Shown: one piece after another, positions 1,520 to 60,235 of the stretch
Numbering within the stretch: position 1 is the first letter of the stretch
Layout of the letters: every line of letters starts with the position of its first letter
UHGV virus genome: UHGV-0242533
Reading direction: 5' to 3' (one strand)
Length of the DNA: 64,000 nucleotides
Source: a virus
Translations under genes and position numbers: made by a program
The notes under the pieces: generated by a model
The model's input: only the letters and a program-made list of their open reading frames with translations
Databases searched by the model: none
Told to the model about the DNA's origin: nothing

Positions 1520-1575
1520 TTTATACTCCTTCTACATTATCAACAACACAAAAAGCCTCCCAACGGAGGCAAATA

Positions 1576-2271
1576 TTACTTACAATCACCAACGGACAGG
1601 TTAAACATCTTACCTAGAGCAATCGTCTCACCTTCCCACGGAAGTTCTGCACCCTTCTCTTCCTCTAAAAGAATAGAGCCGTCGACCAAAAATTTTTCGT
1701 AGTCTCGCAGTGCGTCGTCTACTAACTCACTCTTGTGAATCCACGTAATTGTTTCTGTACCATCCTCTTCGATTCGAACATCACGATGCCATTCATCTTT
1801 GGAGGTAATGTAATCATGGAGCATTTCATATTCAGCTTCTTCAATCATCTCAATCATTGCACGAGCATAGTCAGGGAGGTGATCATGTTTAGTAGATTCG
1901 TATTCAACTACTTCCAGAGTAGAAGGCTTAGCCCGTGCAACTTCTTCAAGTACTTTTGATCGATCTTTGTAGTAGTTCTCATATTTATCACCAATAGTAC
2001 CGACTTGAAGTCCACGGTATTGTTCTACTAAACTCATCATATCTTTCTTCTCCGTAATAGTTGGTTTAAGAATACTTCCACTATATAAATCTTGTACAGC
2101 CAGTCCTGAAACATTTCCCATAGTTTCTAAATGTTGCAAGCTACAACCAGAACGACACAGCTGTGAATTGTAGTCAACCATGTCCATTGCTTTGATGTGG
2201 AAAGGAGAACCAGAAGGGAAACTACCTCCATAAACACCTTCCATGTTAACTGCGATTATTTTATTATTCAT
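1576..2271 (-). CDS. hypothetical protein (231 aa)
   Basis: Long ORF in late operon, overlaps neighbour by 8 nt (translational coupling). Confidence 0.6.
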   Translation of the reverse strand: MNNKIIAVNMEGVYGGSFPSGSPFHIKAMDMVDYNSQLCRSGCSLQHLETMGNVSGLAVQDLYSGSILKPTITEKKDMMSLVEQYRGLQVGTIGDKYENYYKDRSKVLEEVARAKPSTLEVVEYESTKHDHLPDYARAMIEMIEEAEYEMLHDYITSKDEWHRDVRIEEDGTETITWIHKSELVDDALRDYEKFLVDGSILLEEEKGAELPWEGETIALGKMFNLSVGDCK

Positions 2272-2518
2272 TTGTATCTCCCTTGCTGTAATCTTTGTAT
2301 GTTTCTACTTTGTAAGTGCGGAATGCTCTGAAGAAGAGCCAACCTAAGCTACTCACATCAATTGTGATATCGAAATCTGTATCATCATCTAAATCAACAA
2401 GACGACCTAAGCATGTAGCTTCCATCCCTTCTTCAGAGTCACTGTTGACTACGAAAGCGTATGTCTCAGTTCTGAACCGAGGCACCAACTCTGATAAAAA
2501 GTCTAATACTAAATTCAT
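2264..2518 (-). CDS. hypothetical acidic protein (84 aa), first gene of minus-strand operon
   Basis: ORF with AGGAGAAG RBS on minus strand upstream of ATG at 2518. Confidence 0.5.
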   Translation of the reverse strand: MNLVLDFLSELVPRFRTETYAFVVNSDSEEGMEATCLGRLVDLDDDTDFDITIDVSSLGWLFFRAFRTYKVETYKDYSKGDTNE

Positions 2519-2544
2519 AATTCTTCTCCTCTGAATAAAAGTAT

Positions 2545-2672
2545 AAAGGGCACATCATAAGATCAACCCGTAAAGGCCACGTCATACCAACAACCCGTGT
2601 ACGCTGAAGTAAAGGGCATGTCATAAAGGGGACTTCATGTTAAGGCACCCTCACATTAAGGCCATGTCATTA
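2545..2672. repeat. array of five direct repeats, consensus AARGGCMnnTCATA, spaced about 25-40 bp
   Basis: Copies at 2545, 2572, 2611, 2642, 2658 read directly from sequence. Confidence 0.6.
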
Positions 2673-3687
2673 GTCATACTTGATACACCTTGCTATAGAG
2701 AAGCAGATGAATAAACAGAAGACTATTACTAACCAGAATATCCATTCCATTAAGGTCTGTCCATCCATGTGCTGTGTTTAAGCTTACCACATTTACTACA
2801 TCTCCAAGTGGACTTATAAAGGGTGTGAACTCTTTCATCCCCGTAAGCTTTGTGTATCCGATAGTACTCATGATCACATTTGAATTGCTTAATGATTAAC
2901 TTAATTTTCCACATAAATTCTCTTTCAACCTTATATATAAGAGTTTAAAATTCTGATTTGACCGAATGGGGCTAGCCGCTCGCCGCGCGTTTCCTAAAAA
3001 GGGGGAGTCCTCATTTAAAAAAGGGTTATTGGCAATGCCTTTACCTTCCCTTTACATGTTCCACCTTTCCCCGTGCCTACTCCCCGTAGTTATTCCCCCG
3101 TGTATCCACACCACATAAATGGTGGGGCATACTTTTATGCCTCTGTATACTACCCAATACATTACCTACCCGTTTATTTAGTTCCCCTTTAAAGAGTGGA
3201 TGAGAGGCCAGCACTGTATAAAGGTCTGTATAATGATTAGATTAAGGCACTATGAATAAGCTAATAACACCCCCTAGTTACTACCCCATTCCCCCCATAG
3301 TTTGATTGTAAATAGTTTCAATAGTTGTTATTATGAGTGCAATATATGATGGGTGCATGGAATGCACAGCTACGAAGTAGCGTTGTATGTATGTATTAAT
3401 TAAGTGGAAAGATTGATACTTTCTTTTATGTTCTTTCTTTTTCAGCGTACCTGAGCGTAAGCGAAGGGTGAGTACGTAGTACGAACGGTCTTTGATGTTT
3501 GAGTAGATGATTTTGGTTAAGTGGTATATTACTACCGCACTATCTGGCTATCCTTCCCCGTGGTCTGTTCTGCGGTTGTGTGTTCCCCGTCCTATATAGA
3601 TAGTAGAATTAATTCACCCGTGGTCTTGCTTTCCTTATTAGGTAGTGGTAAATTGAATCTATCGATTGAGTGGTTGGAGTAGTAGAA

Positions 3688-3852
3688 ATGATTATCTTAG
3701 TAATGTTGGTGCTGGCTGTAGCGTTTCCTTTGCTTGCTCTGATTGTTTGTGAAGTGGTTGAGTTATTCACTGATAAAGGGTTAGAAGTTGTTGATAAACC
3801 AAGCAAATTTGATGGCGTGAAATTTAGTAAAAAAGTTGAAATTAGTTGTTGA
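3688..3852 (+). CDS. small hydrophobic membrane protein (54 aa)
   Basis: ATG at 3688 with GGAG 10 nt upstream; MIILVMLVLAVAFPLLALIV transmembrane segment. Confidence 0.4.
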   Translation: MIILVMLVLAVAFPLLALIVCEVVELFTDKGLEVVDKPSKFDGVKFSKKVEISC

Positions 3853-3877
3853 CATGTTAGGTAATAAGAAGTATAGT
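3849..3877 (+). promoter_or_regulatory. sigma70-type early promoter (TTGACA-17-TATAGT)
   Basis: AGTTGTTGACA box at 3844-3854, -10 TATAGT at 3872-3877; 41 nt upstream of gene at 3919. Confidence 0.5.
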
Positions 3878-3918
3878 TATCTCATTGAAACGAAGTATAC
3901 TAACTAAAGGGGTCAATC

Positions 3919-4395
3919 ATGAATAAGGCAAACTTTGTAATCGGTGCTCTGGTATTAACCTTCGGTAGTATGGCTATCGCTGACAAGATTGCTAGCGCTC
4001 CAGTTGCTCAAGCTGCTGTAGTTATGACTGATGCTGCTGATACATTCGTTAGCAACGCTCCTAAAGGTTGGATGGTTTGTAAAGGATTGGATTCAGATAA
4101 CGTCACTACGTTGATGAAAGTTAAATTATCTAACGTAACCAATCGTGGTATGATTTTGTCTACTCGTACACTTGACAATCAGAACAATGAGGATATTCTT
4201 CTTTCCCGTAAAGACAATGACCCTGAGTTGATTACCTTTGGCGATGTGCAGACTATCAAAGGTTCTAAAGTTGTGACTAATCTTGTAACGTATGGTACAA
4301 TGCAAGAAACCATGTTAGCCACTTCCGTTTATGCTGCTGATAACAGTATTTGGACGTTCCGCTTTCAGATGGGTGATTGTGTTAAAGCAAAATAG
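3919..4395 (+). CDS. secreted/periplasmic protein with N-terminal signal peptide
   Basis: 158-aa ORF, RBS AAGGGG; MNKANFVIGALVLTFGSMAIA signal-like N-terminus. Confidence 0.7.
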   Translation: MNKANFVIGALVLTFGSMAIADKIASAPVAQAAVVMTDAADTFVSNAPKGWMVCKGLDSDNVTTLMKVKLSNVTNRGMILSTRTLDNQNNEDILLSRKDNDPELITFGDVQTIKGSKVVTNLVTYGTMQETMLATSVYAADNSIWTFRFQMGDCVKAK

Positions 4396-4398
4396 TTG

Positions 4399-4427
4399 TT
4401 GACACGGTTATAGATTGGCAGTATTAT
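4399..4427 (+). promoter_or_regulatory. sigma70-type early promoter (TTGACA-17-TATTAT)
   Basis: Same AGTTGTTGACA box as 3849 promoter; -10 TATTAT at 4422-4427. Confidence 0.5.
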
Positions 4428-4462
4428 TACTTCATCAAGACAACATTAAAGGAATCAAGACA

Positions 4463-4792
4463 ATGAAAACCCTAATCGCATCTGCTCTTTTATCTGTAGC
4501 TGTTCTTTCAACTGTTGGATGTTCTTCTTCTCCGCGTCCTAACGGTTGGTGTGCTCTGGAAGTTGAAGGCACTTGTGTGATGCGTTGGAAAGATGGCGTT
4601 AAGGTTCCTGCTGGTGAGATTGACATGAAGTACGAAGGTGCTAGCTGTTCTAATGGTGGGTCTGTTGATGAAAAAGCCTATCGTGAGCGTGATATGAAAA
4701 CACAAGCCGATTGGAAGAAGTCAGATTTTATCTCCCGAGCAACTCATTGCGGTGGCAATACTTCCGTTAAGGGTAAAGAATGGGACATTTAA
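4463..4792 (+). CDS. lipoprotein (paralogue of 13380..13679)
   Basis: ATG 4463 with AAAGGA RBS; signal peptide ending in lipobox LSTVGC; shares W-C-A-[VL]-[AE]-V-E-G and VP-[AS]-GEIDM and C-G-G motifs with the second copy. Confidence 0.7.
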   Translation: MKTLIASALLSVAVLSTVGCSSSPRPNGWCALEVEGTCVMRWKDGVKVPAGEIDMKYEGASCSNGGSVDEKAYRERDMKTQADWKKSDFISRATHCGGNTSVKGKEWDI

Positions 4793-4896
4793 AAAGATTA
4801 GTTTGCAATACTAGTTCTAACGTACTATCTTTGATTTTCACCGTGATTGCTACTGCAATTGCTTACTATGTTCTTGTTGTTTTGGGAGTGTGACTT

Positions 4897-5160
4897 ATGA
4901 CTAAAGAGTACAGCTACACTATTCCCACCCGTAACTATGGCGATATTGACTTTTCTTACACTGACACATCTGACAAGTGTTTAATCTTGTTCGTTAGTGG
5001 TGATAATATTAATGCGGTGGAGTTTCCTGCTGTTGCTCTAATCATGGATGACGTTAAAGCTGGTCATTATCTAGCGCAACGTGGGGTTCTTCTGTCACTG
5101 GAAGAAATTAAATTGCTTAGAGTATCACTCTTTGAAGGTAAAGGCAACGATGAAGAATGA
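4897..5160 (+). CDS. hypothetical protein (87 aa)
   Basis: ORF in early operon. Confidence 0.55.
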   Translation: MTKEYSYTIPTRNYGDIDFSYTDTSDKCLILFVSGDNINAVEFPAVALIMDDVKAGHYLAQRGVLLSLEEIKLLRVSLFEGKGNDEE

Positions 5161-5446
5161 TTATTTTTGGCGGTGCTTGTTCATTGCTACAGTGGTGCTA
5201 TTCGTCGCTGATATGCTTTACTCTTACGTTCTTTAAGGCCTGAGTGTGCTGTTTTTGTTTGTGTTTGTCGTGGGCTTCATTTCTTTAAATTATTTACTGA
5301 TTGTTGCCGCTCTGGATATTCTTAATCTCAATACTAAAGGTTGATTGCTATGTGGTTTATTAAATTCTTAGGCTTAATCTTTCTTCTTTATTGTGCCGTA
5401 GTCATGCCTATGGTCATAATTTATCTGATTCTATAATCCTTCCTGT

Positions 5447-5470
5447 AAGCCTCCTAGTGAGGCTTTTCTC
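5447..5470 (+). terminator. rho-independent terminator
   Basis: AAGCCTC-loop-GAGGCTT hairpin followed by TTCTCG. Confidence 0.5.
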
Positions 5471-5731
5471 GTTTCTAAGGTGATTGTATGCCTTCCTCCC
5501 TTTTAGCTCGTTGTGATGCTTCTGAGAGCGTCAAATAGTGCTTTACAAGCCTGTTTTAGTGTGTTATTCGCGTGCGCGTTCCTTTATACCTCCCTTCCCT
5601 GAAAAAATAATCGAAATAGGTGTTGCTTTCCTCTATCACTTCCACTATCATCTATTCATCGGTTAAGCAGTACCAAGTAGACAACCTGATAAGTCGTACG
5701 AAAAACAGGTAATCGATAAGAAATAAAAAGA

Positions 5732-5759
5732 TTGACAAGGTATCCAAACGTAGTAAGAT
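5732..5759 (+). promoter_or_regulatory. strong sigma70-type promoter P1 (TTGACA-16-TAAGAT) with A-rich upstream element
   Basis: Exact TTGACA at 5732-5737; AAATAAAAAGA upstream. Confidence 0.55.
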
Positions 5760-5879
5760 GGGTATCAGAAACAAAGCAAGGAAACTTGCAAATGCTCTTT
5801 AAAAACTTATCATCTTGCCCTTTCGCAAAGATTCACGCGAGATAAGGGAAAGGAATTCAAAGAAGATGATAAAAAAGAG

Positions 5880-5907
5880 TTGACAAGGTAATCCAGTGAG
5901 TTATAAT
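5880..5907 (+). promoter_or_regulatory. strong sigma70-type promoter P2 (TTGACA-16-TATAAT)
   Basis: Exact -35 and exact -10 consensus; AAAAAAGAG upstream. Confidence 0.6.
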
Positions 5908-6055
5908 GGTTGCCAGTTAGCAGATACACAGCTAACATGTTCTTTAAAAATATGACCTGATTCACTAGCCTAGCCGCTTAGTAATCCTCAATCAAATATA
6001 GCTGATTGATATATCCTCCCAATAAAGGGAACGACGAAAAAGATTAAAAAGATGG

Positions 6056-6084
6056 TTGACAGGCACTGAGAGTTAGGGCATAAT
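6056..6084 (+). promoter_or_regulatory. strong sigma70-type promoter P3 (TTGACA-17-CATAAT)
   Basis: Exact -35; AAAAAGATTAAAAAGA upstream. Confidence 0.55.
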
Positions 6085-7005
6085 GAGCACATTAGCTAAG
6101 GGAAACATTCCGAAGCGAAGCGAGACAACGGCTAACAGTTGCATAGCGTGAGCAAACACGCTGATAGATTTACCGCTCTTTAACAATATAAACGTTCTTC
6201 TATATCGGTTGAATATGCTTGATGATAATAACCATCGGAAAGCATACCAGATAAAACGGTGTAAGACTCTCTAGACTATCAGAGGAAACAGTCTTGCAAT
6301 CCCTTACTGGAAACGTCACCACTGATAAATGGATTCACTGAGTGCACGCAAAGACTTAAGCTAATCGCCCACGGTTAAGGGTAGCGGCGGTCATCGCTAA
6401 CAAGGCGCTACAGTGAAAGAAGTTAATCAGGGTAGACAAGTCCGACAAATTAACGCCCAATTGAGGGCGGCGGGGAGCGGTTAAAAAGTGGCAAATTGCT
6501 ATTTAACAATAAGGTTTAGTGTGAACGTTTACGATGTGAACGGCTTGAGATTCGTCTTACGATGAAAGTACATAGTCGGTTTATGTAGTAAACTCGCTGA
6601 AAGATATCAAACGTCGGAATACTAGACGGTTAATGACTCTTTCGCAATAGTCTCCCGTAGTGGGCGATGGCTAGCGATTGAGAGTTAATACAAAAGGATA
6701 GGCGAGAGCGAAAGCAAAGTAGACGATATTGCCGACGGTTACAATAACGTAACTAATTAGAGTCGGACACACTGCCTTATTGTGATGATTGATCATCGCT
6801 ATCAGGTCGGCTTTGTTTATAGCGACTAATTAAAGATACCAGATGAAACATCACGGATAAGGAGGCGGCAAGGTTAACTCCTGATAAGACCGCCTCACTT
6901 ACCTGTAACTGCTCAATAATGAGTGGTTAGAGTTAAGTTAATAGTGACTTAAACAAGCTCATAGAGAGCGGGGCATAGTGCCCTAAACATTAAAAGGTAA
7001 ATATC

Positions 7006-7905
7006 ATGGCTAAGATCTTCACTCTGGTTAACGAATCTGGTTTTAACGCTCTGGCTAACAACATCCGCAGCAACAACGCAGCGATTAAGCAAGACGTTTC
7101 TAACTTCCTGTTAGGGCACTTGCAGCACTTCCGTAGCAACGGTAAAAAGCTGGACGTATTACAAGCGGCGGTTGACTTCCTGTTAACTGAACGCTTCCGC
7201 GATATGGATGTTATTGCTACCGCAATCACTTTCTTAACCCCTATCAAGTTTAACACTGATGCGGCGAATGGTCGTAAAAAGTGGATTAATCTGGAAGGCG
7301 AAGCGAAAGCGAAAGAAGATGCGAAAGAAGCGCAAATTAAAACCAAAATGGAACAAAACCGTGCCCGCTGGTCAAACGCTTTCGAAAACTTCGCGTTAGG
7401 TCGTGAAATTGAAGTTGATAACCCTAACTTCTACAAAGGTTGCAATGACAACGTAGCGGCACACCTGCAAATCCCGGCGAAAAACAAGGAAGACTTTAAC
7501 CAAGATATTTACGCTTTGGTTGAACGCTTGAATGCAATCCGTATTGAAGCCAAATTACTGGCTGATGAGCGCAACGGCGCAACTAGCGATAACACTATCG
7601 CCCTGAGTGAAGAAGTTGGGAAGGTTAAAAAGTCCTTTGATTCACTCATCAAGAAAGTCACGGCCTCAACGGTAGCGATCTCGGATGATTATCTGATGAA
7701 CGCATCAAGCAAGGAATTAGAATCACTCGATTCATACGCTGATGAAATGGAAAAGACTGTTGCAGCTATGCAGGAGAAGTTAGAAAGTCTGCGCGGTCGT
7801 ATCTCTTCAACGGTTGCTACCCGTACCGAACAAGCGGCGAAAGCAGAAGAGGAAGAAGTATTGCGTAAAGCGGCTGAAATTATGGCGGCACGTCAGGCGG
7901 CATAA
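7006..7905 (+). CDS. early protein (299 aa), helical/coiled-coil C-terminus, unknown function
   Basis: First ORF downstream of P1-P3 and a 0.9 kb leader; codon usage unlike neighbours (GCG/CGT/CTG rich); followed by strong terminator. Confidence 0.8.
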   Translation: MAKIFTLVNESGFNALANNIRSNNAAIKQDVSNFLLGHLQHFRSNGKKLDVLQAAVDFLLTERFRDMDVIATAITFLTPIKFNTDAANGRKKWINLEGEAKAKEDAKEAQIKTKMEQNRARWSNAFENFALGREIEVDNPNFYKGCNDNVAAHLQIPAKNKEDFNQDIYALVERLNAIRIEAKLLADERNGATSDNTIALSEEVGKVKKSFDSLIKKVTASTVAISDDYLMNASSKELESLDSYADEMEKTVAAMQEKLESLRGRISSTVATRTEQAAKAEEEEVLRKAAEIMAARQAA

Positions 7906-7928
7906 GTAAGACAATTTGAATAAACATA

Positions 7929-7963
7929 AGGCGCTATCTTAACGGGTAGCGCCTTTTCTTTTA
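7929..7963 (+). terminator. rho-independent terminator
   Basis: AGGCGCTA-loop-TAGCGCCT hairpin plus TTTTCTTTT. Confidence 0.65.
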
Positions 7964-8016
7964 TCAGTGCATTGATTCAGTGCATTAATCAAAGAATCTA
8001 ATCAAAGGTGACGATC

Positions 8017-8235
8017 ATGTTAATTACACATACCACGATTTATAGGAATCTTGTCAATGGTCAACATTACCGCCTATCTAAAAAGTATGGCGTTGAATGT
8101 AAATGTGTTATTACCGGTGAATGGTATCCGTCGCCAATGAAGATTGAAACGCTGGAACGTGAAGCGATCAGTTATATTATCACGCAAGAAACAACGTTAG
8201 GCCGTATCTTAAGAAAGCTGGGATTGAGAAAATGA
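8017..8235 (+). CDS. hypothetical protein (72 aa)
   Basis: ATG 8017 with AAAGGTGA RBS. Confidence 0.5.
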   Translation: MLITHTTIYRNLVNGQHYRLSKKYGVECKCVITGEWYPSPMKIETLEREAISYIITQETTLGRILRKLGLRK

Positions 8236-8456
8236 TATTCAGTAGTAATTTTGGCAAGTGTCCTATTTGTGAGAAACATCGCAGCACGGGAAACCATCGC
8301 AAATGTAGTAAGATATTACAGCGCCAACGTGATAACAAACATTGGGATACTGTACACACTAACCAGCGTAAAGAAGAAGTTAGGAAAATGGCTGTTAAAG
8401 CGTCATTTGCTCAATCAACCCGTATTGAACACATTCAAAGGTATCAAGCATCATGA
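8232..8456 (+). CDS. small Cys/His-containing protein (possible zinc finger)
   Basis: CPICEKH...H motif; ATGA overlap with upstream gene. Confidence 0.5.
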   Translation: MIFSSNFGKCPICEKHRSTGNHRKCSKILQRQRDNKHWDTVHTNQRKEEVRKMAVKASFAQSTRIEHIQRYQAS

Positions 8457-8662
8457 TCACTAACATTTCAGAGTTTAAGAAAGCTCCCTCTCGTCTGTTA
8501 GGCCGTCGTGTAGTGTATCTTTATAGCAATAAAGGTAAATGTACAACCGGACGAATTACAACGGTGAGTAGTGCCAATAAGAAACTACTAAAATTATGTG
8601 TAACTATGGATGACGGTACAATCCTTCTACGTAGTTGGAAATCGTTTAGTTTACTTGATTAA
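8453..8662 (+). CDS. hypothetical protein (69 aa)
   Basis: ORF overlapping upstream stop. Confidence 0.5.
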   Translation: MITNISEFKKAPSRLLGRRVVYLYSNKGKCTTGRITTVSSANKKLLKLCVTMDDGTILLRSWKSFSLLD

Positions 8663-8731
8663 GTTATTTGTTCAAGCCTATCGCCTTGATGGGCTTGCCC
8701 GATATAACTTATCACTGAAAGGAATAAGATT

Positions 8732-9175
8732 GTGGCTAAATCTAAAATCAGCATGAAGGGCGGGCGTTGTTTTGCTATCTCTGAACTAGAGAAAGAGAAA
8801 CCGAAGGCAACTAATCACGTTAGTAAGCGTAGTTTAAAACGTCGTGCTGCAAAGGCTGAGGCTGAATCCCATGTTCCTTCCAGTGTGGCAAAGCGTGTAG
8901 GCCATCGTGTCCATCGGGCTGATGCGTTGTTGTTGGCTGATCATAAACGTTCTTTGTTAAAGAGCGGGGGAGCTAAAACAGAAGAGGAGAAGAAGTTAGA
9001 AATCTTCTGTAATGGTCGCACCCGTGGTAAACAGAAGTTTAAAGGTAGCACGAAAGACCCGCAGGCTTTCCCTAAGACAAGCCAGTGTGCACCTGATGTT
9101 TTCTACGCAGATAGTAAACACAAGTGGGGCGTTGAAAAATACATTGACCCCATCAAAGAGGCAAGGGTTAAGTAG
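8732..9175 (+). CDS. basic K/R-rich protein (147 aa)
   Basis: ORF with RBS AAAGGAATAAG. Confidence 0.55.
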   Translation: MAKSKISMKGGRCFAISELEKEKPKATNHVSKRSLKRRAAKAEAESHVPSSVAKRVGHRVHRADALLLADHKRSLLKSGGAKTEEEKKLEIFCNGRTRGKQKFKGSTKDPQAFPKTSQCAPDVFYADSKHKWGVEKYIDPIKEARVK

Positions 9176-9184
9176 TAGGAATAT

Positions 9185-9221
9185 AGCCCCCTCTTTTAGT
9201 ACTATGACGCTCTTTCTGTAG
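9185..9221 (+). repeat. conserved intergenic motif CTCTTTTAGTACTATGACGC (copy 1)
   Basis: Near-identical copy at 16012-16052. Confidence 0.5.
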
Positions 9222-9255
9222 CGTCGTGCCCTCTCCCCATTTGAAGCTTCCGCAT

Positions 9256-9309
9256 AGCCGCCTTTGAGCGGCTTTTTGCGTTACCGCCTCCTTAATTGGA
9301 GGCTTTTTT
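9256..9309 (+). terminator. two tandem rho-independent terminators
   Basis: AGCCGC-loop-GCGGCT+TTTTT and GCCTCC-TTAATT-GGAGGC+TTTTTT. Confidence 0.6.
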
Positions 9310-9335
9310 GTATCTATTATATAGGAAACCATGAA

Positions 9336-36549: not shown

Positions 36550-36558
36550 TAATGTATA
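36550..36558 (+). promoter_or_regulatory. phage-type promoter element TAATGTATA
   Basis: Exact 9-mer 37 nt upstream of ATG 36595; same 9-mer at 41307 and on the minus strand at 50680. Confidence 0.45.
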
Positions 36559-55222: not shown

Positions 55223-56257
55223 TTATTGTATGCTTCTAAAAATCTTCCTAGCATCTAGGACTGGAATTTGAAGGGAGATAGCCCCACCACCACCCATATC
55301 GTAGTTCCTATCCCACTGGAACATATATCGACCATACCCTGTACTAAAAGAAGACCCATTCATTATATGAGACCTTGCGTGTTGGAAATACCAACTACCA
55401 GCTTGACCTCTAATTGAACCAGCCCCACTAGTCAGAGGAATCATGGGGTACGTAAGCGTGGTGTTTCCACCGCTCATAGGCATAAATCGGTCAACCATAA
55501 AAGGTGTTCTGTAAGTAGAGAATACACACTGAGACCCGTTAGGTGAGTAAATATTCAATCCACCATTGTGAGTAGGAACTCCAGCTCCATTACAAAACAC
55601 GGCAATCCTTACGTTATTGATTGTTCCTGTCTGGTTATTGTTTCCGTTATCATATGTTCTATTTTGGTAAACACTAATAGTACGACTTCCTGAGTCATAT
55701 AGAAGTCCCTGACCTCCAGACCAGTTAGCAAACACAGAAGCTCTTGACATATCAAAACCACTGATTGCTGGAATTTGCATAGAACCATTAATGTTTCCTT
55801 CCCAAGCCCAAATACATTGACCAACAACTCCAGCATCTGATATAGAGAAGTAATCAGCTGTGTTTGAAAAGGTTATCCCGTAGTTCCTATTAGCTCTAGG
55901 CCATATTTGATATACGTTGAAAGCTACATCAAACAGTGGATTACTTCCGGGATCCATGTTTATACTAACCCTGAAAGTGGTATTGTTCACAACACTGATG
56001 TTACTTACAACATACACATCAGGGACAAGGTTAGGAGGGACTTCCCATTGCCAACACAAAGACCCGGTTGGGACTATAATGATTTGGCCTGAGCCATCCC
56101 ATCCAGAAATAGGGAAATCTCTACTACCTCCATTAAAGTTATAATTGCCACTAACCCTGTTTTTAAATTGAGGGAAAGTAGAATCACTGTCAATAAAAAG
56201 CTCAGCCGGAGAAGCTGGTCCCGGTCCGACTGGCGTTGTCCATATTCCATATGCCAT
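55223..56257 (-). CDS. virion/tail protein (344 aa)
   Basis: ORF in late block. Confidence 0.7.
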   Translation of the reverse strand: MAYGIWTTPVGPGPASPAELFIDSDSTFPQFKNRVSGNYNFNGGSRDFPISGWDGSGQIIIVPTGSLCWQWEVPPNLVPDVYVVSNISVVNNTTFRVSINMDPGSNPLFDVAFNVYQIWPRANRNYGITFSNTADYFSISDAGVVGQCIWAWEGNINGSMQIPAISGFDMSRASVFANWSGGQGLLYDSGSRTISVYQNRTYDNGNNNQTGTINNVRIAVFCNGAGVPTHNGGLNIYSPNGSQCVFSTYRTPFMVDRFMPMSGGNTTLTYPMIPLTSGAGSIRGQAGSWYFQHARSHIMNGSSFSTGYGRYMFQWDRNYDMGGGGAISLQIPVLDARKIFRSIQ

Positions 56258-56258
56258 A

Positions 56259-57227
56259 TTACCAACTCCCTATTCTAATACGGAGTGTACCACTTGCATC
56301 ATAGAAATCGATACGACTACCGTTCATCCAAAGCTGAGAGCTAGAAGTACTACCCAAAACAAAATCACCACCAACCGTAAGACGCCAATTAGTCCCTGAC
56401 ATTGACCCAGCTGTTATCTTATCAGCGGACAAACTTGTAATCTGTGCGCTTGTTATGCTAACGTTATCAATTTGTGCCCACTGAATCCTTGCCGTTGCTA
56501 TCTGAGCCGTTGTGATGACAACGTTAGTAATATCAGCAAACTCCATAACTGCCCTTCCGCCAACTACCTTAAAAGGAGTACTCCCTTCTGTTCCATTGGA
56601 AACAAGGAATTTATCAGCAGTGACTTGGAACTGGCTTACAGAGCCATTGTTTGTTAGTTTTACCCCTGCTGTCTTGCCGTTCACTGTGGAGTTAACGCCC
56701 CAAGTAGCTTCGTATTCAGTAAGCTTCATATACTGAGATGCACTACCTGTTCCGTTTGTCAGATCAGATTGAATAAGAGCTATCTCTTGTCCTTGGTCAT
56801 TAACAATGCCTTCAACAGTCTGTATAGATGCTGTGTTACCTTCTATAGAAGTTTTAATACCAGACATAGTTGAATCTAATTTGACAGGGGGGCTAACTGA
56901 ATTATCCCAAATATCATCGGTGGATAGGTTACCCATTTGTGTTATGATATCTGCAATGGCAGTCTCAATCTCTGTCGTAACACGGTTCTCTAGTTCATCA
57001 AATTGCAAATTCATAGCATGAAGAGCTTTAATACGAACATCAATCTCCTCATGGATTTCATCTATAGCTTGGAACATTTGATTGGTTGCAGTACTGATAT
57101 TCTGGAGTTCATCATATATCGCAACGTTGTTAGTTTCTACACTCTCAGAGGTGTTTAGAAATCCCACACTATAAGGTTGTGTTGTGTTGTTTCTTCCGGT
57201 ATTCTTACGAAAGCCACCAGCACCCAT
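56259..57227 (-). CDS. virion/tail protein (322 aa)
   Basis: ORF in late block. Confidence 0.7.
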   Translation of the reverse strand: MGAGGFRKNTGRNNTTQPYSVGFLNTSESVETNNVAIYDELQNISTATNQMFQAIDEIHEEIDVRIKALHAMNLQFDELENRVTTEIETAIADIITQMGNLSTDDIWDNSVSPPVKLDSTMSGIKTSIEGNTASIQTVEGIVNDQGQEIALIQSDLTNGTGSASQYMKLTEYEATWGVNSTVNGKTAGVKLTNNGSVSQFQVTADKFLVSNGTEGSTPFKVVGGRAVMEFADITNVVITTAQIATARIQWAQIDNVSITSAQITSLSADKITAGSMSGTNWRLTVGGDFVLGSTSSSQLWMNGSRIDFYDASGTLRIRIGSW

Positions 57228-57277: not shown

Positions 57278-60235
57278 TTATCTTCGCCCGCCAACAGCAA
57301 ACTCAATAGTTAATCCATTGATAGCTGCATTACTGTTAACATCATTATCTATAACATTATAGAATAGATACGGATGGTTCAGTCGGACACCTACATGTCT
57401 GTCAACACCAATTGTATAAGACTTTTCACTGTGAATATGCCTATCCTCCTGATCAGAATACTGACTACCACCAGCTTGGAATATGTATGTACCTGACCCT
57501 GTTACTTGTGGACGGAACCTGTTTATGTGCTTCTGATTCCATTCATTAGTTACATTGTCAAAGTCTATACCAGTTCTCTCCAATCTCATCTCTAAGGGCT
57601 TCTTGACAACAACATCATTCAACCTATCATAAGAATAATCATAAGGGCCTATATCCACTTGGTAAAAACCTTTCATCCAAGAACCTACTACAGTAACTCT
57701 CTGACGGAAGTTAGTAGAATCCTTTCTCCACACAAGTTCATTGATTGATGGATCATCCCAAGTATACTCTTGGAAGTCAACCCAAGTGGGACCTTTCTCT
57801 AGAGTTGGAGGATCAACTAAACCAATACAATGAGAGAATGGGATTGTACGGAAAGACCATGTATCAAACTCGTAATTCCATACAGCTGCTTTAGTACAAG
57901 CAAAACTACCAGCAGGCTCTCCGGGTCCAACATAGAGAATCCAAACCTCTTTCTTATCTTGATGTAGATGAACCTTAGTGGCTAAAGGGTTTACTAAACA
58001 CACTTCGTTGATAAGCATATTCTTGACCCTGTTAGATGCAATAGACTTCTTGGTTGCACCATTGTGCAGAATAACGTCATTCTGAGTAACAACAAAATGA
58101 CCACTCTCAACTTCAACTACACACTCAGGTGCTAAGATTCCAGAATCATTGAAAAGCTTCTTGAACATTAGAGGTTGATATGTGTTGTTAGTTGGGGATC
58201 CGATGTAAGTCTCAAACTCTGTGTAGATAAATAGATAATCCTTAAGGGGGAGAATCTCAACTAAGCTGCCGTTTGAGTCAGCTAAATCTATATACCCGGC
58301 ATATCCATTTTCTAAAGCCTCAGTCTGGCCTACAACGTTTGCTGCTAAGTCTGAAGTCACATATCTATCATAAGCAAAGTCATCCCATAAAGTAGGTGCC
58401 TTGTTCTCATTAGCATAGTTAGACCAGCGAAGACGAAGTGGATAATGAGTAGTAACCCCTGATGCATTAGATTCTCGCATATTAAGAGCAAATAGTCGAT
58501 TATTAAATGCACGAATCCTTTCGCACTTCCAGTTATATTTTACAACAGAAGGGTTCCCATTAGCATCAACTATCGTCTGCTCTCCCCACCCCGGAAGATC
58601 TGTGAAGTATTCAGAGGCAAACTCTTTTACTTGAGGTGTTTCGTAGTGAGTGGTGAATACTGCGCAGTTAGAGATAATCGTATTATACCAAGGATATTCT
58701 TCAAATGCTTCATAATCTCTACGAGCTACCTGACTAGCAGTACAGGTTATCTTTACTTTGCCAGTCTTAATAGCAGTTAAGGTAAAGGTAGGCTCGGTAG
58801 TGGAAGTAGAGGATATGTACCCCGGCTGATCTACCACCCAACTGTAAAGATACTCTCCCTCAGGGAATGCAGTTGCAGTTATTACTAATTCATCTCCAAC
58901 ATCAATTTCAGTATCCACAATGTCCAGAGTTAAGGTTTCAAGCTGAGTTGACCTTGACATGGCTGCATTTATAGAATAAGCTTCAACGCCATCAACCATA
59001 GAGTAATCATAAAAAGGGTTTCCCTCTGACATTGCTGAGGTGTCGATATCTGAATCCGCAGAACTGGATTCTTCAGAAGGAGCTGATGCAGCGGCAAAAA
59101 GAGTCCTACTTGATAGCTCAACCCTGACATTACAAGTGGCTGTTCTCTCACCTTCTTCTGAAGTTGCTGTTATAACTGTAAATCCAGCTGTAAGCCCAGA
59201 GATAGTACCTTGAAGACCTGTTCCTGAAACAGTTGCAACATTTGGATTAGAAGAAGTCCAAGTTATTCTCTGATTTGCAGCGTTTGATGGGATTAAACTA
59301 GCATATAAAACATAGGAAGTCCCCCGGTTAATTTGTAAATCTGTTTGACTTAAAGATATGCTGTCAATCTGATTAATAACAGTAACAGAACATTCCGAGG
59401 TCTTAGACCCATTGCTTACAGTAATTAGTGCATTGCCTACCCCTTGAGCGGTTAGTACTGCTGTAGTAGTGTCACCGTTCGGCGCTACAGAGATAATTGA
59501 TGGATTAGAAGAAGTCCAAGTTAGTGGGGTCTTACTTGTTGTGGCTGTGAGCGTAGTTGTTCCACCTTTTCGAAGTTGAACAGAATCTCGGTTAAGAAAA
59601 ATACCAGAATCTGAATCGACAACCCTTACGGAAATACTGGCAGTAACAGACTCATCTTCATTAGAGATTGTAACAGTGAAGCTCCCCTCATTAGATAAGA
59701 CGCTCAATGTAGCTTTCTTACTGTCGTCAGGGTCAACTAATATTGAACCATAAGAAGGGTTACTAACCTCCCATACAAGAGATGGAGCAGTAACACCCTC
59801 CGGAAGAAGAGATACCTCGAGAGTCTTGCTTTCATTAAAACTCATAATAACAGATGTTTCTTTGGGGACAATCTCTGTTAGAACAGGGTTTATCTTAATA
59901 TAAGACACAGCTTTTTTGGTGACTGTAGCCACTCTTCGACTTACATCAACCATAGATTCATTATTTAGTCTAAAAATACTCTTATCTGTACCTACCAATA
60001 AGAAGCTATTATTAGCACTGAAGTAGTCAAAAGGCATTGAAGTGAATGATAGGGGTTTTATCTCTTTATCACTCTCAACGTAGGAAAGAGGGGCAGAGCC
60101 CCCCGTTTTAAATACACGCTGTTCTACAAACCGAGCGTTTATTGCATTGGTGAATGCATTAGGAGCCAGATCTGTAGGAGATTGGTCAGCAATAACACCA
60201 ACCGCACCCAAAGATTTTATTGGGTAGAGAGCCAT
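57278..60235 (-). CDS. large virion protein (985 aa) with three tandem bacterial Ig-like (BIG2-type) domains
   Basis: Three repeats ending SFTVTISNE...SISVRVV, ALITVSNGSKTSECSVTVI, FTVITATSEEGERTATCNVRVEL. Confidence 0.75.
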   Translation of the reverse strand: MALYPIKSLGAVGVIADQSPTDLAPNAFTNAINARFVEQRVFKTGGSAPLSYVESDKEIKPLSFTSMPFDYFSANNSFLLVGTDKSIFRLNNESMVDVSRRVATVTKKAVSYIKINPVLTEIVPKETSVIMSFNESKTLEVSLLPEGVTAPSLVWEVSNPSYGSILVDPDDSKKATLSVLSNEGSFTVTISNEDESVTASISVRVVDSDSGIFLNRDSVQLRKGGTTTLTATTSKTPLTWTSSNPSIISVAPNGDTTTAVLTAQGVGNALITVSNGSKTSECSVTVINQIDSISLSQTDLQINRGTSYVLYASLIPSNAANQRITWTSSNPNVATVSGTGLQGTISGLTAGFTVITATSEEGERTATCNVRVELSSRTLFAAASAPSEESSSADSDIDTSAMSEGNPFYDYSMVDGVEAYSINAAMSRSTQLETLTLDIVDTEIDVGDELVITATAFPEGEYLYSWVVDQPGYISSTSTTEPTFTLTAIKTGKVKITCTASQVARRDYEAFEEYPWYNTIISNCAVFTTHYETPQVKEFASEYFTDLPGWGEQTIVDANGNPSVVKYNWKCERIRAFNNRLFALNMRESNASGVTTHYPLRLRWSNYANENKAPTLWDDFAYDRYVTSDLAANVVGQTEALENGYAGYIDLADSNGSLVEILPLKDYLFIYTEFETYIGSPTNNTYQPLMFKKLFNDSGILAPECVVEVESGHFVVTQNDVILHNGATKKSIASNRVKNMLINEVCLVNPLATKVHLHQDKKEVWILYVGPGEPAGSFACTKAAVWNYEFDTWSFRTIPFSHCIGLVDPPTLEKGPTWVDFQEYTWDDPSINELVWRKDSTNFRQRVTVVGSWMKGFYQVDIGPYDYSYDRLNDVVVKKPLEMRLERTGIDFDNVTNEWNQKHINRFRPQVTGSGTYIFQAGGSQYSDQEDRHIHSEKSYTIGVDRHVGVRLNHPYLFYNVIDNDVNSNAAINGLTIEFAVGGRR

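Follow-up and report, generated by a model that had tools for sequence, protein, structure and literature searches.

Two Rtp45-family lipoproteins encoded in the early region of a phiEco32-like phage genome: probable exclusion factors directed against LptDE

The virus genome UHGV-0242533, of which a window of 64,000 nucleotides was analysed, encodes two small paralogous lipoproteins in its early region, referred to here as copy A and copy B (Table 1). Based on a profile hidden Markov model, direct sequence matches and predicted folds, both are assigned to the family of Rtp45, the superinfection-exclusion lipoprotein of siphophage Rtp, for which a structure on the outer-membrane machine LptDE has been reported (9RPS, chain D; PMC12685063). 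We propose, with a probability of roughly 0.65, that both lipoproteins block LptDE, that LptD is probably the terminal receptor of the phage itself, and that copy A contributes a second type of tip to the same exclusion function.

Results

Assignment of both lipoproteins to the Rtp45 family

The initial annotation had described two paralogous early lipoproteins with lipobox signal peptides and common motifs in their mature regions, and all of these features were recovered. The two open reading frames (ORFs) lie on the plus strand at the expected positions and are related to each other by 42 identities over 105 positions in a BLASTP alignment (40%; E=3e-24). Lipoprotein signal peptides were called by pattern rules: LSVAVLSTVG in front of Cys20 of copy A and IFLVCIALTG in front of Cys22 of copy B both fit PROSITE PS51257. 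The TVGC of copy A fails the stricter rule [LVI][ASTVI][GAS]C, and is of the same type as the MVGC of Rtp45, an experimentally verified lipoprotein. Both signal peptides have a hydrophobic h-region, and given that the residue at position +2 is Ser (copy A) or Val (copy B) and not Asp, sorting to the outer membrane is expected for both proteins. Each gene has a plausible Shine-Dalgarno sequence.

A single Pfam family, PF24052 (Phage_lipoprotein), was matched by both proteins over the whole model (positions 1-80 of 80), with E=1.7e-30 and 105.3 bits for copy A and E=4.3e-34 and 116.7 bits for copy B (cut-off 27 bits). Both also belong to PHROG 4281; in NCBIfam there was no match for copy A, copy B, the candidate receptor-binding protein (RBP) gp19 described below or the 158-amino-acid (aa) ORF upstream of copy A. 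A phmmer search of PDB sequences gave one true match for either copy, Rtp45 itself (9rps_D; E=5e-21 for copy A and 6e-13 for copy B). Additional matches of copy B to designed armadillo-repeat proteins were rejected as spurious, being sums over repeats with no single significant stretch. A BLASTP alignment of Rtp45 with the first 65 residues of copy A showed 51% identity (E=8e-26), which places copy A nearer to Rtp45 than to copy B; for copy B, the identity to Rtp45 was 45% over 55 residues. AlphaFold2 (AF2) models of copy A (pLDDT 84) and copy B (pLDDT 77) had 9rps_D as their sole meaningful fold match in the PDB, with a probability of 1.00 each and target-normalised TM values of 0.78 and 0.72, respectively. 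The family is small: among 1.84 billion representative proteins, 18 clusters of the PF24052 type were recovered by an exhaustive profile search, a size estimate taken from this search because word-indexed homolog searches gave only 3, 9 and 23 proteins. Two long proteins, P0034 (966 aa) and P0037 (747 aa), contained 12 and 3 weak stretches, respectively, that match family profile positions ~28-73; these may represent a repeated beta-hairpin motif or a chance resemblance.

The motifs common to the mature parts of copies A and B are RP(D/N)GWCA, VEGxCV, RW, KVP(A/S)GEIDM, CGG and GKEW. In a wider comparison that includes Rtp45 and Lpp021, a lipoprotein that excludes phages mEp021 and mEp515 when supplied on a plasmid (PMC11893012), the cysteines Cys30/Cys38, the stretch W...KVP(A/S)GE(I/V)D and the C-terminal G(S/K)KEW are common to all four proteins and form invariant or nearly invariant alignment columns. 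For Rtp45, Cys30 and Cys38 are reported to form a disulfide, and residues 30-35 to pair with LptD residues 318-323; the protein docks on LptDE in its closed state, next to strands 5-8 at the periplasmic membrane interface and between LptE and LptM, and sends a long hairpin up the LptD lumen, by which extracellular loop 4 is displaced by up to 20 Å and RBP binding is blocked (PMC12685063). Since core, cysteines, GKEW and predicted fold are the same in copies A and B, a single target, LptDE, is the simplest reading. The proposal of the initial annotation that small early lipoproteins of this kind block a receptor is thereby supported, through homology to Rtp45 as solved on LptDE and to the excluding Lpp021; its suggestion that two diverged copies could serve two receptors was not supported, and both lipoproteins most likely block LptDE rather than two different receptors.

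A common core and a hypervariable insert

Copy A consists of a signal peptide (residues 1-19), the lipid-bearing Cys20, a core (20-62) containing Cys30/Cys38, a 33-aa insert (63-95) between Cys62 and Cys96, and a C-terminus ending in GKEWDI. Copy B has the corresponding layout, with Cys31/Cys39 downstream of the lipid-bearing Cys22, a 24-aa insert between Cys63 and Cys88 and the C-terminus GKEW. In an alignment of 25 family sequences, the two copies were 60.5% identical in the core (copy A residues 20-62), 58% in the C-terminus (96-107) and only 15% in the insert between them. The same pattern was seen across the family, where the insert ranges from 8 to 33 aa with a mean pairwise identity of 26%, as compared to 66% for the core; within Gordonclarkvirinae its length is 18, 24 or 33 aa, depending on the lineage. 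The cysteines that bracket the insert (Cys62/Cys96 in copy A numbering) were both present in 22 of the 25 sequences, both absent in the remaining 3 and never found singly, which argues for a second disulfide closing the variable loop.

According to the AF2 models, the strands that flank the insert (residues 51-65 and 93-106 of copy A; 52-65 and 86-98 of copy B) pair up in a long hairpin whose tip is the insert. If this hairpin corresponds to the lumen hairpin of Rtp45, the hypervariable loop would meet the extracellular loops of LptD. The insert more likely tunes the deformation of LptD, or determines which competitors are excluded, than it switches the target.

Copy B is a conserved gene and copy A a rare insertion

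Copy B is the ortholog of gp106 of phiEco32 and a conserved gene. Many Kuraviruses have a version of it with 91-96% identity, and all Gordonclarkvirinae among the matches listed carry the gene. The gene begins 20 nt downstream of a tRNA-Arg gene that marks the conserved locus; in phiEco32, phi32_106 ('putative phage lipoprotein') likewise follows tRNA-Arg. In the literature searched, we found no functional assignment for phiEco32 gp106 or for the 'putative lipoprotein' of SU10.

Copy A is an accessory gene that resides in a rare insertion of ~400 bp made up of a promoter, a ribosome-binding site and the gene itself, i.e. a promoter-plus-gene cassette or 'moron'. The dedicated promoter is a near-consensus sigma-70 promoter that ends 36 nt before the ATG and lies within the part missing from relatives. 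In DNA alignments, phages XT73 and EcM-vB1 lacked the cassette, which was present in a 74-kb metagenomic contig (Logan SRR26073952) with the same layout and 90% identity, the second two-copy genome. Copy-A-like proteins were additionally found on two short contigs. None of the 60 best-matching deposited genomes had two copies, an exact-sequence look-up of copy A returned no record, and no deposited phage matched copy A above 69% identity; likewise, no DNA donor of the cassette above that value was found in the phage collection, where DNA identity reached 67-69% at most. The N-terminal half of copy A was most like siphophage alleles and its insert most like the SU7-type allele of the B locus (P0008; ~68%). 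A recent duplication of copy B within the genome was rejected as the origin of copy A, which is nearer to Rtp45 (51%) and to the SU7-type insert (~68%) than to copy B (40%). Compared to the second two-copy genome, the ratio of non-synonymous to synonymous substitution rates (dN/dS) was 0.18 for copy A (0.09 in the mature part) and 0.21 for copy B, indicating that both copies are maintained by purifying selection. In a distant SU10-like podophage lineage represented by three metagenomic contigs with an SU10-type portal (L008-L010), a single family member of 87 aa was present at 8001..8264, near the start of the early region, a position that resembles the locus of copy A and not that of copy B.

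Both genes lie in the early region of a phiEco32-like genome

Positions 3000..15000 of the window matched deposited phiEco32-like podoviruses by megablast with 91-96% identity over ~65-70% of the query; the best relatives were EcK-vB, EcM-vB1, ES17, phiEco32 and SU10 (genus Kuravirus, subfamily Gordonclarkvirinae). From ~3.8 kb on, the plus strand is the counterpart of phiEco32 genes 128 to 69, which make up the rightward early block of that phage. Genes of this block are first transcribed by the host sigma-70 RNA polymerase, the phage sigma factor gp36 acting later, and the gp36 promoters TAATGTATA of phiEco32 are located upstream of genes 68, 58 and 40 and of late genes (PMC8948821). The loci of both copies lie upstream of the first phage-sigma promoters. 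No such promoter was found near copy A or copy B, as exact sites in the window occurred only at 36550 and beyond; with one mismatch allowed, the motif was not enriched in the window. Matches to the sigma-70 consensus of at least 11/12 numbered seven in the window, all on the plus strand, with 1.6 expected on both strands, and four of the seven lie close together at the head of the early region (3849..6084). Together with the promoter in front of copy A, these data bear out the label 'early' of the initial annotation. One of the remaining matches, at 57603, is located within the late nozzle gene, on the strand opposite to that gene.

A remote homolog of LptD-binding receptor-binding proteins behind a J-type tail needle

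When the window was searched by tblastn with Rtp44, a single RBP-family homolog was found, at 56152..55259 on the minus strand (E=2.6e-11; 302 aa; ~24% identity). It corresponds to a 344-aa DUF6453 protein, the ortholog of SU10 gp19 and here referred to as gp19, which scored 88.2 bits against PF20051 (DUF6453, the Rtp44 family; cut-off 25 bits; E=8e-25). Its sole PDB match was 9rpt_C, the Oekolampad RBP solved on LptDE (E=1.8e-9; residues 77-334 versus 72-315). By sequence, gp19 appears to be a remote member of the DUF6453 LptD RBPs, a relationship that does not assure its specificity. SU10_019, between tail needle gp18 and transglycosylase gp20, is named 'hypothetical protein', and its counterparts in relatives are labelled 'hypothetical' or 'membrane protein'; the published structure of the SU10 virion did not assign it.

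The gp19 gene directly follows that of a 322-aa tail needle orthologous to SU10 gp18 (7z4b_EA, E=5e-168), which carries the lambda-J domain Phage_Tail_Tip (PF09327, E=2.4e-21). A weak alignment (E=2.7e-4) links needle residues 50-317 to the C-terminal part of Rtp43, which is the J-like fibre of Rtp. The DUF6453 protein probably docks on this needle. Short fibres and needle are thought to touch the cell surface (PMC9509320). As judged from sequence, this genome holds all three parts of the siphophage LptD module: a J-type tip, a DUF6453 RBP homolog and an Rtp45-type lipoprotein.

The lipoprotein and DUF6453 RBP genes are adjacent in Rtp, mEp021, Oekolampad, EK99P-1, JL1, bov25_1D and AV129, and remote gp19 homologs in lipoprotein-carrying groups also include those of Bas83/84, again in adjacent genes. 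This siphophage arrangement, with the lipoprotein gene beside the RBP gene at the gpJ locus, is not seen for copy A or copy B. The two genes nevertheless occurred in the same genome in every Gordonclarkvirinae record found in both match listings, and gp19 was kept in all Gordonclarkvirinae among the matches listed, inside the tail/ejection operon. In Klebsiella weberviruses (e.g. OX335404, OV877387, PQ571295 and MZ428223), a PF24052 lipoprotein that covers 93% of copy B, including its C-terminal part, is encoded ~10 kb from a DUF6453 RBP homolog. Separation of lipoprotein and RBP genes is thus not unique to Kuraviruses, adjacency being common but not universal. The gp19 genes fall into allele classes: that of the window is 92-95% identical to those of Paul, 1-6af and Ptacy1532 (95% to Paul) and 68-73% identical to those of most Kuraviruses. 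Given that the phages nearest to the window in the early region carry the other class, recombinational exchange of the gp19 gene is indicated.

Neighbouring early genes

A 158-aa ORF of unknown function (PHROG 21410) is located directly upstream of copy A; its signal peptide looks cleavable, and it has a near-consensus sigma-70 promoter of its own. Its product is a second early protein directed to the envelope, and the ORF is kept in relatives without copy A. The end of copy A overlaps by 13 nt a 37-aa ORF predicted to span the membrane once. In XT73, the homolog of this ORF directly follows a 163-aa secreted ORF, an arrangement from which we conclude that insertion of the copy A cassette took place at the 5' end of the 37-aa ORF and reshaped this end. 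Further downstream, segments of 5068..6500 each match two to three places at the right end of phiEco32 (1533..5344) with 78-96% identity. Repeated matches among the first early genes point to a dispersed or tandem repeat set, possibly of promoter/terminator modules. In the RefSeq entry of phiEco32 and in relatives, many early ORFs of 70-120 aa bear names such as 'terminase', 'polymerase', 'DNA helicase', 'tail protein' or 'DNA polymerase B region'; such implausible names for tiny ORFs look like propagated annotation errors.

Table 1. Positions of the two lipoprotein genes and of associated features in the window
Feature	Position	Strand	Basis or remark
Copy A, 109-aa Rtp45-family lipoprotein	4463..4792	+	ORF and PF24052
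Sigma-70 promoter TTGACA-17-TATTAT (11/12), dedicated to copy A	4399..4427	+	consensus scan
Promoter-plus-gene cassette ('moron') of copy A	4396..4795	+	between 158-aa secreted ORF and 37-aa membrane ORF
Copy B, 99-aa Rtp45-family lipoprotein, phiEco32 gp106 ortholog	13380..13679	+	ORF and PF24052
tRNA-Arg(TCT), upstream of copy B	13283..13359	+	ARAGORN; marks conserved B locus
Candidate cognate RBP gp19, 344-aa DUF6453 protein, SU10 gp19 ortholog	55223..56257	-	tblastn, PF20051, 9rpt_C
Tail needle, 322 aa, SU10 gp18 ortholog, lambda-J Phage_Tail_Tip domain	56259..57227	-	7z4b_EA, PF09327
Secreted 158-aa ORF, PHROG 21410	3919..4395	+	directly upstream of copy A
Near-consensus sigma-70 promoter TTGACA-17-TATAGT of 158-aa ORF	3849..3877	+	consensus scan
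Single-pass membrane ORF, 37 aa	4780..4893	+	13-nt overlap with end of copy A
Sigma-70 matches of at least 11/12	3849, 4399, 5880, 6056, 37982, 40211, 57603	+	consensus scan

Discussion

We propose that both lipoproteins are made from early transcripts of the host RNA polymerase right after infection and reside in the outer membrane. Each would push a long beta-hairpin up the lumen of LptD, as reported for Rtp45, and would thereby force extracellular loops 4 and 5 into a shape that the RBPs of LptD-binding phages cannot engage. The infected cell, and later its debris, would stop adsorbing LptD-dependent phages. Given that an RBP homolog, gp19, is encoded right behind the J-tip needle, the phage's own progeny would probably be among those excluded, and LptD would probably serve as terminal receptor after binding to O-antigen. 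Blocking of the phage's own receptor, as the initial annotation had envisaged for such lipoproteins, is therefore plausible: a homolog of the cognate LptD-binding RBP is encoded in the same genome. The two copies would share the docking core and differ in their disulfide-closed hypervariable inserts at the modelled hairpin tip. Copy A would add immediate-early expression and a second type of tip, and so a broader or harder exclusion of LptD-binding competitors; we do not think that it adds a second receptor.

That LptD is the terminal receptor of Kuraviruses is a new prediction from sequence analysis and not a result. In the literature searched, we found nothing that links Kuraviruses or phiEco32 to LptD or to a function of their lipoproteins. 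More tentatively still, one may picture Kuraviruses in general as using LptD via gp19 at the needle tip, a module shared with small siphophages, in which the early lipoprotein would be the cognate exclusion factor, the disulfide-stapled insert the interface of an arms race between phages competing for LptD, and the second copy a means to widen the range of excluded LptD-binding rivals or escape variants; we consider this wider picture possible, and hold it with less than even confidence.

Several points weigh against the proposed role. According to published work, Gordonclarkvirinae are O-antigen-dependent phages whose short tail fibres touch the surface and for which no protein receptor is known (PMC11990801), and use of the LPS outer core has been suggested for some phiEco32-like phages (PMC6393563). 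The identity of gp19 to LptD RBPs (~24%) is below the criterion of >30% identity at >99% coverage used in a 2026 receptor-prediction preprint. The main evidence against LptD as terminal receptor is that gp19 was not detected among the virion proteins of SU10: Supplementary Table 1 of the SU10 study, which covers major gel bands only, scores it as 'no / no', like holin and lysin. No coupling between lipoprotein allele and gp19 allele was seen across relatives: Paul has a gp19 of 95% and a copy B of 75% identity to those of the window, while EcK-vB has a copy B of 96% identity and its close relative EcP-vB a gp19 of 68%. Moreover, the authors of the Rtp45 structure report that AlphaFold3 (AF3) mispredicts Rtp45 itself (PMC12685063), which makes the models weak evidence for the direction in which the insert points. 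Finally, the hypervariability of the insert is not accounted for by this target, as LptD of E. coli is highly conserved.

Part of this evidence would fit a lipoprotein that serves for competitor exclusion only, blocking LptDE against siphophages that use LptD (Rtp-like phages, Dhillonvirus) in a Kuravirus that does not itself use LptD and whose gp19 is not a virion protein. The failure to detect gp19 among SU10 virion proteins, the restriction of published findings to O-antigen dependence and the independent reassortment of the two alleles all favour this explanation, as does the position of the lipoprotein gene, which is early and far from the tail genes, like that of a host-takeover gene. 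However, a J-tip needle gene followed by a DUF6453 gene reproduces the J-RBP pairing of siphophages, gp19 is kept within the tail/ejection operon in all Gordonclarkvirinae among the matches listed, and a tip protein at 1-3 copies is easily missed by mass spectrometry of excised bands. We thus consider exclusion of competitors alone unlikely, and yet the most serious of the alternatives.

Binding of the two copies to two different outer-membrane proteins, in line with two receptor specificities, might be suspected from their overall identity of 40%, their unrelated inserts (15%) and the presence of several fibre types on the phage. However, both copies are best conserved in the part by which Rtp45 is reported to dock on LptD, namely residues 30-35, the disulfide and the strands after it, and LptD is indicated for every family member that has receptor evidence or a recognisable RBP partner; within so small a family there is no sign of other partners, and with Rtp44 as query the window yielded one RBP-family homolog. 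Divergence towards two receptors is for these reasons improbable. A further explanation invokes the LPS carried by LptDE rather than a receptor: as the Rtp45 hairpin is reported to occupy the LptD lumen, a plug of this type could stop the supply of new LPS and O-antigen, and so change the surface recognised by the fibres or weaken the outer membrane before lysis. The need of these phages for O-antigen and the bulky extra insert in the hairpin region of the Kuravirus versions would agree with such a role. But Rtp45 was well expressed and co-overexpressed with LptDE, with no growth defect described in the available part of that report (PMC12685063); existing O-antigen would outlast a short lytic cycle, during which complete modification is considered likely futile (PMC11990801); and no family member has been tied to an arrest of LPS transport. 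We rate modulation of LPS export as quite improbable. A function as o-spanin or u-spanin in lysis has a negligible chance of being correct and was rejected, even though both proteins are small lipoproteins and a homolog in phage Chapo is annotated as 'u-spanin': both genes are located in the early region, away from the lysis cassette (SU10 gp14/15 for holin and lysin), neither protein has a C-terminal transmembrane segment, phiEco32, NJ01, ECBP2 and KBNP1711 have already been assigned a two-component spanin (PMC6139136), and the homology to Rtp45 is strong. Blocking of LptDE, with LptD as probable receptor of the phage, thus remains the reading that we prefer.

Phages of the phiEco32/SU10 group are widely isolated and in use against pathogenic E. 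coli. The three-part module provides a concrete and cheaply testable receptor hypothesis for this group, and the putative receptor is an essential, drug-relevant outer-membrane machine. Together with the variable insert, the presence of two copies moreover offers a natural series on how small lipoproteins may reshape LptD from the inside, which bears also on whether exclusion proteins diversify in response to competing phages. Should the prediction of LptD as receptor fail, the genome would represent a podophage armed against siphophages whose receptor it does not use itself.

Comparison with known systems

In their general logic, the two lipoproteins resemble Llp of T5 and Cor of T1/phi80, small early outer-membrane lipoproteins that inactivate the receptor of their own phage from the periplasmic side, which protects from superinfection and keeps progeny from being lost on debris. 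Llp and Cor differ in their target, the TonB-dependent transporter FhuA, and no sequence relationship to them was found, Pfam giving only PF24052 for copies A and B; the mechanism of Llp is long-range allostery, as opposed to physical displacement of loops. The lipoproteins of phiEco32 (gp106) and SU10 have the same position and the same N-terminal half as copy B, the type of insert differing between lineages.

Lpp021 (gp81 of the temperate phage mEp021) is a family member with the signature CATSAYGVC...KVPSGE...GSKEWY and four cysteines in the mature region, and excludes its own phage. It differs in being prophage-encoded, 72 aa long and adjacent to its RBP gene. Its authors linked it to OmpA-dependent phages, yet the adjacent gene encodes a strong LptD-RBP homolog: mEp021_80 (1762..2915, 'virion structural protein') matches the LptD-binding RBP of Oekolampad with E=8.8e-46. 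Being essential, LptD may have been missed as the receptor of this phage group, which was published as OmpA.

Closest to the window copies is Rtp45, with which they have in common the lipobox type, the Cys30-Cys38 pair, the KVPAGE(V/I)D strand and the C-terminal G(S/K)KEW. Rtp45 has 76 aa, no second cysteine pair and no insert, in contrast to the hypervariable insert of 33 or 24 aa in copies A and B. Its gene lies directly upstream of the RBP gene and convergent with gpJ in a siphophage, whereas the window copies are located in the early region of a podophage, in duplicate and 42-51 kb from an RBP homolog encoded on the other strand. In kind, the two lipoproteins thus belong to an already known family, that of Rtp45, of LptDE-binding exclusion factors. 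New are the cysteine-stapled form with a hypervariable insert, its occurrence in a podophage and at a distance from the RBP gene, and the rare second copy with a promoter of its own, and with them the suggestion from sequence comparison that Kuraviruses may carry a complete module for recognition of LptD and exclusion at LptD.

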